This document shows positions 55,240 to 59,475 of a stretch of DNA of 64,000 nt, one piece after another. The stretch lies in IMG/VR virus record IMGVR_UViG_2912844605_000003. The stretch is one strand, 5' to 3'. The notes under the pieces were generated by a model. It was not told where the DNA came from and made no database searches. It saw nothing but the letters and a program-made list of their open reading frames with translations. The position numbers were made by a program, and so were the translations under genes. Position 1 is the first letter of the stretch. The number at the start of each line of letters is the position of its first letter. This stretch comes from a virus.

Positions 55240-56241
55240 ATGACCAAATCAATTGAAAAGAATATGCTCAGGTCTCGAGCAACAAAGCTTCCCGAGGTCA
55301 CGGAATCAATGTGGGAGCAAGTTGACGAGGAACATAGAAACTTAGTTCAAGAGTTTTTAGATGCACACTCGTTTAGAGATAAAACACGAAAACAATATTA
55401 CTCCTCCCTTCGTCAATTCTTTTGGTGGGTACATACCTCTCTTAACGGCAAAAAACTTTATAAGATCTCAAAACGTGATTTCATTAGGTATCAAAGTTTC
55501 TTAAAAAATCGTGGAATGTCTTCCAGTGGGATTGCATTAAAAAAAGCTGGTGTATCTTCATTAAACAACTATATTGAAAATGTTGTTGCAGAAGATGATG
55601 AGAATTATGAGAAATTCAGAAACTTCACCCGTGGACTCCCAGCTATTCCAAAAACCACAACATATGAAAAAGTAAAGGTTACATATGATGATTACAAGCT
55701 AATGATGGACGCCCTAAAAGAGGACGAAAATTATTTAGGAATGGCCTGGCTTGCCACAGCTTTCAATGTTGGCGGGCGAAGAGCAGAACTCATACAGCTT
55801 AAAACAGAAATATTAGATTATCCTATCCCCGAAGGTCAGTCATATGTGATGAGTCATAAGGTATTTGGAAAAGGTAAAGGTGAAGGAAAGCCTCTTGAGT
55901 ACATGATTAACACAGAAGCATTGGAGTACCTTCGATTGTGGCATGAAAAACGCGGTTATGATCATGAATACCTCTTTACTACTCAGTATGGCGGAGAGCC
56001 TAAACAGATGTCAGAGTCTTGGGCTGATTATTTTTGCTCGGACGTTTTATCAGACATTCTTGGCCGGCGTATTAACCCTCACCTCTTCAAAGCTTCATGC
56101 ATCACTTATCTCCTAGAAGTTAAGAAAATCAAAATTGAATTGATAAGTAAATATGTAGCTCATCATGAAGATGTCTCAACAACAATTAAACATTATGATT
56201 TACGGGATTTTGAAGAAGAAAAGAATCAAATATTTGTTTAG
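55240..56241 (+). CDS. yomM: Tyrosine recombinase-like protein
   Basis: 333 aa; GGRRAEL, NPHLFK and AHHEDVSTTIKHY motifs. Confidence 0.9.
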   Translation: MTKSIEKNMLRSRATKLPEVTESMWEQVDEEHRNLVQEFLDAHSFRDKTRKQYYSSLRQFFWWVHTSLNGKKLYKISKRDFIRYQSFLKNRGMSSSGIALKKAGVSSLNNYIENVVAEDDENYEKFRNFTRGLPAIPKTTTYEKVKVTYDDYKLMMDALKEDENYLGMAWLATAFNVGGRRAELIQLKTEILDYPIPEGQSYVMSHKVFGKGKGEGKPLEYMINTEALEYLRLWHEKRGYDHEYLFTTQYGGEPKQMSESWADYFCSDVLSDILGRRINPHLFKASCITYLLEVKKIKIELISKYVAHHEDVSTTIKHYDLRDFEEEKNQIFV

Positions 56242-56376
56242 TTAAAATCCCTCTTTTATGCAAAATCAAGATCCTTCATTTGAGGGATTTTGCTTATGCT
56301 GTAAAAATTGAACTTTCTATTTTTCTTTTCTCCAAGTTGCAAGGATGGTATAATTTTCATAAAGGAGATGAAGGCT

Positions 56377-56547
56377 ATGGCAACTGATATGAGAATTAAA
56401 CCAGTTGTGACAGGGAAGGATGCAGAAAGATTCTTAGAAAGAGTCAAAAGAAATAATGAAAGAATCGAAGCTAGAAGAGCGAAAAGAAAAGCGATGATGA
56501 ATAGGGTACCGTATGGAAAACAAGAAAATCGACTTGTCAAAAATTAA
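56377..56547 (+). CDS. 56-aa basic peptide, candidate minimal antitoxin
   Basis: AAGGAG RBS; extended -10 TGGTATAAT upstream; MATDMRIKPVVTGKDAERFLERVKRNNERIEARRAKRKAMMNRVPYGKQENRLVKN; overlaps the GNAT start. Confidence 0.65.
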   Translation: MATDMRIKPVVTGKDAERFLERVKRNNERIEARRAKRKAMMNRVPYGKQENRLVKN

Positions 56548-57070
56548 AGTCCGGCTTATACAAGTAACTGATTATAACATCATTCAAGATTTCAAATGTG
56601 GCAATCCCACCATAGAGAGATATTTAAAACAAGATGCCTACTTCGACACGATAGATCACTTTTCGAGTACAAGCTTAGTTTTCTATAAAGAAAATGAAGA
56701 AAAAGAAGACTTAGTAGGCTTTTTCACATTAAAAAATGTACCTCTCAGAATTAGCATTCCTTCTGATGAGTTGTCCACTAACTACAGTTTAGAGATTGCT
56801 AGAATCGCCGTAGATGTAAAATATCAAGAGAACGGCTTTGGTACAATGATGTTAAATACAATTAAAAATTTGGCCCAAACAACGAATCAACGATTTGTCA
56901 CACTAGATGCATTAATTGAAAGATATGATTGGTATGCAAAACGGGACTTTGAAGCTTTCATTGAAAATGAAGCAAAACTGAGCAATAAAGAAGGTTTAGT
57001 ATATATGTACTCTGATTTGCTTGACGAAAACGCTATTGATGCATATCTAGAGGATGAACAGATTGTTTAG
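56513..57070 (+). CDS. GNAT acetyltransferase, TacT/AtaT toxin-like
   Basis: FKCGNPTIERYLK, LVGFFTL, IARIAVDVKYQENGFG (acetyl-CoA motif), VTLDA...WYAKRDF. Confidence 0.85.
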   Translation: MENKKIDLSKIKVRLIQVTDYNIIQDFKCGNPTIERYLKQDAYFDTIDHFSSTSLVFYKENEEKEDLVGFFTLKNVPLRISIPSDELSTNYSLEIARIAVDVKYQENGFGTMMLNTIKNLAQTTNQRFVTLDALIERYDWYAKRDFEAFIENEAKLSNKEGLVYMYSDLLDENAIDAYLEDEQIV

Positions 57071-57115
57071 TCATATTTTTTCTAACCTCGCATATACTGC
57101 ATTGAGGTGGTAAAA

Positions 57116-57241
57116 ATGTGTACAAGCAATAAAAAATCAATTGTCACAGGCAAAGATGCCAAAAAGTTTGTAGATAAAGCATTAAAAAAACAAAGATTAG
57201 TAGAAAATAGAAGAAAAAAAAGAAAACTATCAAAAGACTAA
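57116..57241 (+). CDS. 41-aa basic peptide, paralog of the peptide upstream of the GNAT
   Basis: GAGGTGG RBS; MCTSNKKSIVTGKDAKKFVDKALKKQRLVENRRKKRKLSKD. Confidence 0.65.
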   Translation: MCTSNKKSIVTGKDAKKFVDKALKKQRLVENRRKKRKLSKD

Positions 57242-57499
57242 AGAGGCTTTATCGCCCTCTCTTTCAAACCGAAACCTAAAACCCATTTCAATGGGTTTTT
57301 AAATTTTTGCGGATTACTCTTTACTTTTTTCAGATCAGGGGAAAGTGGCTCTCGAATTGCAGTAATAGGTGGTTGATTTTCAGCGTAGAAGTATTCTCTC
57401 TCCTTTTGTAGAAATTTAACCATAAAATTTCTTCCCTTCGTTTTTAAATATTAAAACTTTCCACATTTTTCTCGATAATAGTATTGAGGTGATTATGTA

Positions 57500-57922
57500 A
57501 TGGAAAGTAATACAGTAACACACCAGCTTCTTTCACTTGATACTAAACAATTTCTTGAATATATCAAAAATGATTTTGGGTATCTGAATAAGACTGAAGA
57601 AAGCAGAAGCAAAATTCTAAATTCATTGAGAGAAATTGACACTGACTCTTTGATTTTTATTGAAGCAAGACTTGAGAATCTTCAAAAACAATTTGACCAC
57701 ACTAAACATTTACCTTGGATTTTAGCAGTTTGGAATATTGCAATGGGGTTTTACCAGACATTATTTAAGTCTTATCCCCTTATTAATACTTTTCTCATAG
57801 GCGGTGGGACTCTTGCATTCTGGTGGGCTTATTACAAAGACAGAAAAAATTTATTGGCTGTAAATTATTTGATTGATTTGCTTGGAAGGATAAAGAAAGA
57901 AAAAGAGGATAATACTAAATGA
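57500..57922 (+). CDS. 2-TM membrane protein
   Basis: 140 aa; GAGGTGA RBS; two hydrophobic helices. Confidence 0.75.
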   Translation: MESNTVTHQLLSLDTKQFLEYIKNDFGYLNKTEESRSKILNSLREIDTDSLIFIEARLENLQKQFDHTKHLPWILAVWNIAMGFYQTLFKSYPLINTFLIGGGTLAFWWAYYKDRKNLLAVNYLIDLLGRIKKEKEDNTK

Positions 57923-58281: not shown

Positions 58282-59115
58282 TTATTTTACGCTTGTTTTC
58301 TTATAAACTGTTCCTTTTTTATTACCTGTTAAATAAACTTTGATGTATTGATCTTGGACTACCAAGCCATAACCATTAATTTCGAGACCAAAGTGGAAAT
58401 TTCCTCTTCCGTAAACCTCAGCGTAATTAGATCCTTTTTTATATGTGCTCTTTTGCCAGTTGGAAACTTGCCAGATGGATAAGAATCCTCTTGTATACCA
58501 TGCATCATTTAACTTCGGTTTAACATCGGTACCATTGTATTGGAAATACCCCTTTGTCTTAACTGTGAAAAGCTTCATATTTAAAAAGTTTTTGGCCGTA
58601 TAGCTATGTGTGTATGTTTTTGTGTTTTTGTATTTTGCTGCTGCTATTTCAACATCAGATGAAGTTGGTGGTGTTTCTTCTTCGGTGGTAGACTCAATGA
58701 AGTAAACTGGAGTATTTGTGAATGTAACGGAGATGTTTTCGTTAAGTTTGTGTGTGGTGAATTGACCTATATCAACGTTTGATTGGATGTACTTATCAAT
58801 ATCAAGTTCTTTTTTTGTGTTGTCAACATTCGGTAATATTGTTTTGCTGTTAGTTTCAACATAATATTTTGTCAAAGCCTTTTCGGTGAATTCGTTTTTA
58901 GAATTGAACTGATCTACTGCATTTTCTAATTGTTCTTCATCTTGAGGATTAGAGATTTTTAGTGTAACTAAAAGCAAATCTTGATATTCTTGAATTGAAT
59001 TGATCTCATTCTTTTCGCTTGCACTTGCTGTTTTACTTCCAGTGGCAAATGTGAAAGATGAGAGAATTAACACGAAACCCAAAATAGAAAAAAGTGTTTT
59101 TTTAAATTTCCCCAT
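58282..59115 (-). CDS. Secreted protein of unknown function
   Basis: ATG 59115 behind AAGGAG; Sec signal MGKFKKTLFSILGFVLILSSFTFATGSKTASA; aromatic, beta-rich C-terminal domain. Confidence 0.8.
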   Translation of the reverse strand: MGKFKKTLFSILGFVLILSSFTFATGSKTASASEKNEINSIQEYQDLLLVTLKISNPQDEEQLENAVDQFNSKNEFTEKALTKYYVETNSKTILPNVDNTKKELDIDKYIQSNVDIGQFTTHKLNENISVTFTNTPVYFIESTTEEETPPTSSDVEIAAAKYKNTKTYTHSYTAKNFLNMKLFTVKTKGYFQYNGTDVKPKLNDAWYTRGFLSIWQVSNWQKSTYKKGSNYAEVYGRGNFHFGLEINGYGLVVQDQYIKVYLTGNKKGTVYKKTSVK

Positions 59116-59475
59116 AGTTAACAGCTCCTTTTTTGATTGATAATAGAGCCTTCTATGTTGATTCAACCTGTTGTAGGCATTTTATAATACGTCCCTCCTT
59201 TCAATTAGAACCATAACATATAATCTATGTCCAATTCCATACATTTTATCAATTTTAAGGTAATATTATTTACTCATAAGTGAATGACACCCAAAAATCA
59301 CAATAGGACATATAAACTATTCCCTTTCTAGTGAAGGGAATTTAATATTGATATATTAGAGAGCCATTTTTATAACAATAGATAGCAGGTAAAGGCACGT
59401 TCTATTCATCCCACTCTGTTCTAAACTTTTGGCAACAGTGGTATAATGTAGGAAAATGATACCGGCGGTGGTTGA

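Follow-up and report, generated by a model that had tools for sequence, protein, structure and literature searches.

The 64,000-nucleotide stretch of DNA analysed here (IMG/VR virus record IMGVR_UViG_2912844605_000003, hereafter the window) belongs to an SPbeta-like Bacillus prophage. At positions 56377-57241 it carries three co-oriented plus-strand genes, encoding in this order a short basic peptide (pepA), a GNAT acetyltransferase and a second short basic peptide (pepB). Judged by its sequence, this cassette seems to represent a variant of a toxin-antitoxin (TA) module that has not been described before. An earlier note on the same DNA had described a 56-residue and a 41-residue open reading frame (ORF), each with its own ribosome-binding site, on either side of a GNAT gene with an FxCG...YLK motif. 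All of these could be confirmed (Table 1), and the motif is read as F-K-C-G ... Y-L-K in the translated GNAT frame.

The ATG start codon of the GNAT gene lies inside pepA, with an overlap of 35 nt, and follows a weaker, AGGG-type Shine-Dalgarno (SD) sequence. GNAT and pepB are separated by a spacer of 45 nt that carries the SD sequence of pepB; in other loci, GAGGTG- or GGGGTG-type SD sequences are found ahead of pepB. The pattern TGnTATAAT is present upstream of pepA in 8/8 aligned loci. At the other end of the operon the RNA fold has an energy of -16.6 kcal/mol (z = -2.2), and a hairpin with a T-run is also found 3' of pepB in three homologous loci (L005, L007 and L009). A sigma-70 scan of the cassette gave no separate promoter for pepB, no convincing operator-like palindrome was found upstream of pepA, and an Rfam scan of the cassette gave nothing meaningful.

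Table 1. Features of the cassette and its borders (window coordinates)
Feature	Position	Strand	Description	Basis
Terminator hairpin of the yomM-like recombinase gene	56244..56291	+	Left border; 10-nt perfect inverted repeat	
Insert relative to phage SPR	56299..57454	.	1156 bp replacing 29 bp	blastn of window against SPR
Extended -10 promoter element	56346..56354	+	TGGTATAAT	Read from sequence
Shine-Dalgarno sequence of pepA	56361-56367	+	AAAGGAG; strong	Sequence
pepA	56377..56547	+	56 residues, basic, net charge +10	ORF and strong SD sequence
GNAT acetyltransferase gene	56513..57070	+	185 residues, isoelectric point 4.6	Pfam Acetyltransf_1, family profile, AF2/Foldseek
Shine-Dalgarno sequence of pepB	57104..57110	+	GAGGTGG	Sequence
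pepB	57116..57241	+	41 residues, basic, net charge +12; paralogous to pepA residues 1 to ~38, tail lacking	BLASTP, conservation
Operon end	57242..57309	+	Weak hairpin, then terminator with 9-bp stem (57278-57299) and T-run	Terminator scan

The acetyltransferase and its charge

Pfam searches with the GNAT protein gave generic GNAT matches only (Acetyltransf_1). When a family profile built from 13 members was searched against PDB, the first matches were the structurally solved tRNA-acetylating toxins AtaT (E-value 2.5e-14), AtaT2 (4.8e-14), TacT (6e-14), KacT (1.8e-13), GmvT (5e-13) and ItaT (6e-11), followed by PaiA (1.9e-10) and Naa50 (~1e-7). The AlphaFold2 (AF2) model of the protein has a pLDDT of 89 and includes an extra acidic C-terminal helix; its top Foldseek matches are ItaT (structure 7BYY; PMC7367177), AtaT, KacT, GmvT, AtaT2 and TacT1-3. 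The placement in the TacT/AtaT-type toxin group, as proposed in the earlier note, is thus borne out by both the profile (E ~1e-14) and the predicted fold. In an alignment of eight family members with five known toxins, the AtaT residues Y144, G106/G108, R95 and F20 correspond to Y141, G108/G110, R97 and F27 of the GNAT; Y141, G108 and G110 are invariant in all of these sequences and R97 and F27 vary little or not at all. In this comparison the enzyme's catalytic centre looks intact.

In total, 299 representative relatives of the GNAT could be identified at E<=1e-3. Between the GNAT gene and its counterpart in an 85%-identical cassette (L002:4001-4555) there are 31 non-synonymous and 34 synonymous codon differences, and these near-equal numbers suggest relaxed or diversifying selection on the GNAT.

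The family differs from known toxins in its charge. Twenty GNATs of this family have an isoelectric point (pI) of 4.4-6.0 and a net charge of -2 to -15, as against a pI of 6.6-9.5 for five known GNAT toxins, and the peptides of the family carry a charge of +3 to +13, as against -4 to +4 for DUF1778 antitoxins; since the sequences are mutually related, this contrast should be taken as a pattern, not as the result of a statistical test. A pI of 5.1-6.2 was found for three more distant GNATs whose partners carry the motif, and a pI of 8.6 for one with a DUF1778-like partner.

In AtaT, residues H34, R37, R40, R45, R71 and K77-K82 are needed for tRNA recognition (PMC7595197). In the cassette GNAT family, H34 is replaced by Asp or Glu, R37 by Phe or Tyr, R40 by Ile, R45 by Ser and R71 by hydrophobic residues, while K77-K82 corresponds to a gap or to acidic residues. 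The earlier note had named aminoacyl-tRNA as the target, a proposal that is weakened by the acidic or hydrophobic residues at the AtaT contact positions and by the acidity of the whole family; tRNA as the target of this enzyme appears doubtful. It is conceivable, though improbable, that a complete charge swap has taken place at the toxin-antitoxin interface, retargeting the enzyme to cationic substrates.

Two paralogous peptides

The two peptides can be aligned without gaps, with 14/31 residues identical (45%) and a pairwise BLASTP E-value of 1e-8, so that the shared motif, which had already been pointed out from the sequence, is not a matter of chance. When 16 pepA and 9 pepB sequences are aligned, the first 35-38 residues are matched with essentially no gaps. 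They have in common a pattern of basic-x-x-Pro, three residues and Gly-x-Asp-Ala-x-x-Phe, with a Lys/Arg-rich stretch after it. Within the G-K-D-A motif the Lys varies, as S, N, P, H, T, A and R are also found at this position; pepA proteins have a conserved Met-Ala start and the N-termini of pepB proteins are variable. In the AF2 model of pepA (pLDDT 82), residues 1-13 are extended, residues 14-43 form one long helix and the C-terminal tail is disordered. This tail, which is the least conserved part of pepA and is absent from pepB, may be little more than a product of the overlap with the GNAT gene, or a degradation signal.

Basic peptides next to an acidic enzyme in which the counterpart of the tRNA-binding groove of AtaT has reversed charges would also suit a phage accessory acetyltransferase that is not a toxin. 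Such an enzyme would act on a cationic substrate (a polyamine, a basic antibiotic, or a Lys or the N-terminus of a basic protein), and the peptides would be regulators, pseudo-substrates or substrates. Their Lys/Arg-rich composition and the conserved Met-Ala start of pepA are in line with this, as is the finding that the next-best relatives of the GNAT after the toxins are the spermidine acetyltransferase PaiA and N-alpha-acetyltransferases; roles other than TA are also allowed for GNATs outside the true TA clade (PMC9177977). However, the GNAT scores 25.1 bits against the PaiA equivalog NF053587 of NCBIfam, where the cut-off is 250, and neither the Lys of the motif nor the N-terminus of pepB is conserved. 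Also, the layout of overlapping small ORFs and the patchy distribution among prophages are typical of TA modules. We regard a non-toxin acetyltransferase as rather unlikely.

A pepA-like small gene was found upstream of every homologous GNAT examined, with the start overlap kept at GNAT identities from 100% down to ~25%, and the pepA-GNAT layout is the same in loci L002-L029. The complete set of three genes is present in about ten distinct loci, mostly in prophages of Bacillus, Peribacillus, Oceanobacillus and Paenibacillus. A pepB gene could be identified in B. sonorensis, B. velezensis (with a TTG start), Peribacillus, a JGI phage contig, Oceanobacillus and Paenibacillus thalictri, as well as in two IMG/VR phages and two metagenome contigs (L026 and L028). 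Its frame, SD sequence and motif are kept 3' of the GNAT gene at GNAT identities down to ~35%, and comparison with the 85%-identical cassette gives a ratio of synonymous to non-synonymous codon changes in pepB of 7:4. This conservation across lineages, together with the synonymous excess, shows that pepB is a real gene and not a stray ORF. Within the Bacillus/Peribacillus group, pepB proteins are 45-56% identical to each other and only 28-41% identical to the pepA of their own locus, which points to a single ancient duplication, after which both copies were inherited together with the enzyme.

PepB is missing from several otherwise complete pepA-GNAT loci (L010/L021, L011, L012, L019, L027 and L029). 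This absence, the lack of the disordered tail in pepB and the separate conserved subfamily that pepB forms could indicate that pepA is the sole neutraliser and that pepB is a regulator or competitor, for instance by displacing pepA as a decoy or by setting a release threshold as a protease-resistant buffer. Such a division of labour seems very improbable, as pepB retains exactly the segment that is conserved family-wide, the tail that it lacks is the part of pepA that varies most, and neither peptide has a predicted DNA-binding fold. Alternatively, the peptides could be obligatory, interchangeable adaptor or targeting subunits and not antidotes, in which the motif docks to the GNAT and the Arg/Lys-rich helix binds nucleic acid. 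PepA and pepB would then steer the enzyme to different RNAs or polyanion-bound substrates, giving a holoenzyme with two specificities. The basic tRNA-binding residues missing from the GNAT, the arginine-rich helical segment of the peptides, and the maintenance side by side of two paralogs so diverged that pepB proteins are nearer to each other than to their own pepA would agree with this. There is, however, no precedent for such subunits in the enzyme family, and many homologous loci manage with one peptide. A search for longer relatives of the peptides yielded no peptide-GNAT fusion, which is weak evidence, and on balance we regard adaptors as improbable. One candidate fusion, P0009 (272 residues), was rejected, since the extension at its N-terminus looks as if the partner gene had been read through in the wrong frame.

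The peptides have no relative in Pfam or PDB, and an ESM Atlas look-up of pepA gave best scores of 0.82, which is chance level. A word-indexed search of 5.8 billion proteins recovered 23 members of the peptide family, all labelled hypothetical. Wider locus scans with the GNAT alignment gave 5, 4 and 4 loci, indicating that the family is rare.

Two further loci deserve mention. L017 consists of B. velezensis-type SPbeta DNA with the three-gene cassette, in which the GNAT gene is split by a frameshift, reflecting either a decayed copy or a sequencing error; the record is titled Streptomyces sp. and is probably mislabelled or contaminated. In B. sonorensis, on the same contig as L002 but ~120 kb away (L041:2501-2975), a solo pepA-like peptide of 64 residues is encoded after a yonO/RdRP-like fragment and before a 58-residue ORF with two transmembrane segments. 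It is 68% identical to the N-terminal 41 residues of pepA and has a different tail. This solo peptide occurs in at least 24 contigs, in a neighbourhood that contains no GNAT gene; its retention there fits an orphan antidote or, equally, a role independent of the GNAT.

The earlier note had further contrasted the peptides, as shorter, with the single ribbon-helix-helix (RHH) antitoxin (DUF1778) of known GNAT systems, and had remarked that they look like the toxin-binding helix only. The peptides are indeed not RHH proteins. None of the 25 peptides matched PF08681 (DUF1778) at E<=10, the peptide profile matched no solved antitoxin, and hhalign of the peptide family against five DUF1778 proteins gave a probability of 0.4%. 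The comparators were taken from E. coli Sakai, E. coli HS and pCP301; a DUF1778 search of 151 Bacilli genomes had given only two weak partial matches that were not usable. The outcome was null whether whole proteins or only the C-terminal half were compared, and also when intermediates were included; at a relaxed threshold the best local alignment, although in the expected register, had P=0.37. An RHH fold, with a strand followed by helices A and B, was considered for the peptides and rejected on account of the single-helix model and the lack of any RHH-family match.

For the toxin-binding helix the picture is mixed. The distant GNAT partner in L015 has TacA1/DUF1778 as its best Pfam match (positions 46-77 of 80, E=0.027, below the family cut-off). 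The matched stretch is the toxin-binding half of DUF1778 (hhalign P=7e-4). This partner resembles that in L016 (E=7e-6), which in turn matches the pepA profile with P=0.0035. Such a chain would link the peptides to the C-terminal part of DUF1778, but with null results in the direct comparisons it is no more than suggestive. The description as a toxin-binding helix fits the single-helix model and this weak chain, while no direct comparison is significant.

Motif-bearing partners could also be identified around related acidic GNATs, namely upstream in L047 (hhalign P=1.9e-4), downstream in L045 and convergent in L048. In the last of these (L048:671-2191), the distant acidic GNAT gene directly follows a gene for a 277-residue protein with HFX_2341_N and weak Cas_APE2256 matches, and its 3' end is overlapped by the convergent gene for a 58-residue peptide with a G-K-D-A motif. 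In L014 (1834-1959, minus strand), a 41-residue ORF convergent to a related GNAT gene ends with a P-I-L-T-G-K-D stretch resembling the motif of the peptides and may be a remnant or a convergent partner.

The insert in SPbeta-like prophages

In the region up to position 56298, SPR, SPbeta, phi3T and their relatives match the window with 92-97% identity. The last shared gene before the cassette is a gene for a yomM-like tyrosine recombinase (55240-56241), followed by its terminator, which is common to SPbeta-like phages and lies outside the cassette. Homology to SPR stops directly after this terminator and is resumed before a gene at 57500 for a 140-residue protein similar to spr_53. To determine the borders of the insert, the window was compared by blastn with SPR and with L002, L003, L022 and L023. 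The part that is common to other SPbeta-like prophages extends from ~56243 to ~57263 and is ~85% identical; it occupies the same site in B. sonorensis prophages and in two IMG/VR contigs, with different cargo after it in each case. The same site combined with differing downstream cargo indicates a portable module in a variable slot. This confirms the proposal that the cassette is a discrete insert after a terminator, with an extended -10 promoter of its own, as is evident from the comparison with SPR and from the conserved TGnTATAAT. The inserted DNA had no megablast match among 50,697 phage records.

The right-hand ~200 bp of the insert (57243-57454) are not common to other cassette-bearing prophages and have no match in the phage collection either; their sole content is a minus-strand ORF of 61 residues (57238-57423), the reality of which is doubtful. 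The cargo further downstream includes the spr_53-like protein (57500-57922), which has no family match and a hydrophobic C-terminal half, and a 294-residue protein encoded on the minus strand (58282-59166) with a signal-peptide-like N-terminus.

Interpretation and comparison with known systems

The earlier note had interpreted the cassette as a three-part TA or abortive-infection module with two antitoxins, or with an antitoxin and a decoy, and this is supported in part. We propose that the cassette is a TA-like module with two paralogous neutralising peptides, and estimate the probability of this reading at roughly 45%. The cassette would be a self-contained mobile operon consisting of a constitutive extended -10 promoter, pepA, GNAT, pepB and a terminator. 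Its GNAT is related to the tRNA-acetylating toxins, from which it has diverged to an acidic form, and its catalytic centre looks intact. Both peptides would attach to the GNAT by the segment common to them and so keep the enzyme inactive; this segment is made up of an extended N-terminal part containing R-x-x-P, a helix cap (G-x-D-A) and an amphipathic basic helix bearing the Phe residue. As the ribosome-binding sites of the peptides are strong and that of the GNAT is weak, the peptides are expected to be made in excess. Once peptide supply halts, the freed GNAT would acetylate its target. Rather than tRNA bound in the manner of AtaT, this target is probably a cationic substrate, or else tRNA, provided that the enzyme has help. 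The data themselves establish the anatomy of the three genes and their conservation, the paralogy of the two peptides, the fold and active-site residues of the enzyme, the lack of an RHH in its partners and the inverted charge of the GNAT compared with the solved toxins; peptide-GNAT binding, inhibition, toxicity and any part in prophage maintenance or the exclusion of phages are inferred.

We count in favour of a TA-like module the first rank of toxins in both profile and Foldseek searches, the conserved catalytic residues, the overlapping upstream partner kept throughout, the presence of pepB in about ten loci and the partners around related acidic GNATs. To these may be added the L015 chain to DUF1778, the pI and charge split, the portable insert, its promoter and terminator, and the frameshifted GNAT gene of L017. 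Several points weigh against it. The enzyme is acidic, and the basic residues with which AtaT contacts tRNA are lost or charge-reversed in it. Profiles of the peptide family and DUF1778 gave a null result when compared directly, and the solo pepA-like peptide is widespread in B. sonorensis without an adjacent GNAT gene. A stably inhibiting pepB might also prevent any release of the enzyme. None of the three proteins matched a family of PADLOC-DB at E<=1. Finally, homologues of GNAT toxins are almost absent from Firmicutes, and for GNATs that fall outside the true TA clade, other functions or unknown antitoxins have been considered (PMC9177977).

The Bacillales and prophage branch of the GNAT toxin clade thus has a different, minimal partner family that is unnamed in databases. 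This partner can be duplicated, bracketing the enzyme between two paralogs, and the charges of enzyme and partner are opposite to those of canonical GNAT-DUF1778 pairs. If the peptides neutralise the GNAT, they would be among the shortest protein antitoxins and would offer a compact model for a minimal antitoxin that inhibits without binding DNA. If the GNAT is not a tRNA toxin, it would represent a change of substrate within the toxin fold.

GNAT toxins are known to pair almost only with DUF1778 antitoxins or, in one clade (clade C), with DUF4065 (PMC9177977). With the GNAT-DUF1778 type II systems (AtaRT, TacAT1-3, KacAT, ItaRT and GmvAT), the cassette shares the fold and sequence clade of the enzyme, the catalytic Tyr and the acetyl-CoA glycine loop, a small upstream partner gene that overlaps or abuts the GNAT gene, and a location on mobile DNA. 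It differs from them in that the partner is a basic single-helix peptide of 40-56 residues, with neither RHH nor significant DUF1778 match, in that a second, paralogous partner follows the GNAT, and in that the GNAT is acidic, lacks the basic tRNA-contact residues and has the extra acidic C-terminal helix. The cassette also resembles the GNATs described outside the true TA clade, which have TA-like bicistronic loci with short, divergent upstream ORFs without predictable DNA-binding domains; for these, no peptide family, shared motif, downstream paralog or charge inversion is named in PMC9177977. The DUF4065-GNAT pairs provide a precedent for GNAT toxins that have exchanged DUF1778 for another partner (PMC9177977). 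DUF4065 is, however, a larger and unrelated domain, for which no Pfam match was seen in the cassette peptides.

With tripartite TA systems (toxin-antitoxin-chaperone, HipBST, omega-epsilon-zeta and PaaR-PaaA-ParE), the cassette has in common three genes in one operon with one toxin. To our knowledge, the third component of these systems is either a chaperone or regulator or else a split toxin domain, but no paralog of the antitoxin, whereas the third gene of the cassette is a paralog of the first.
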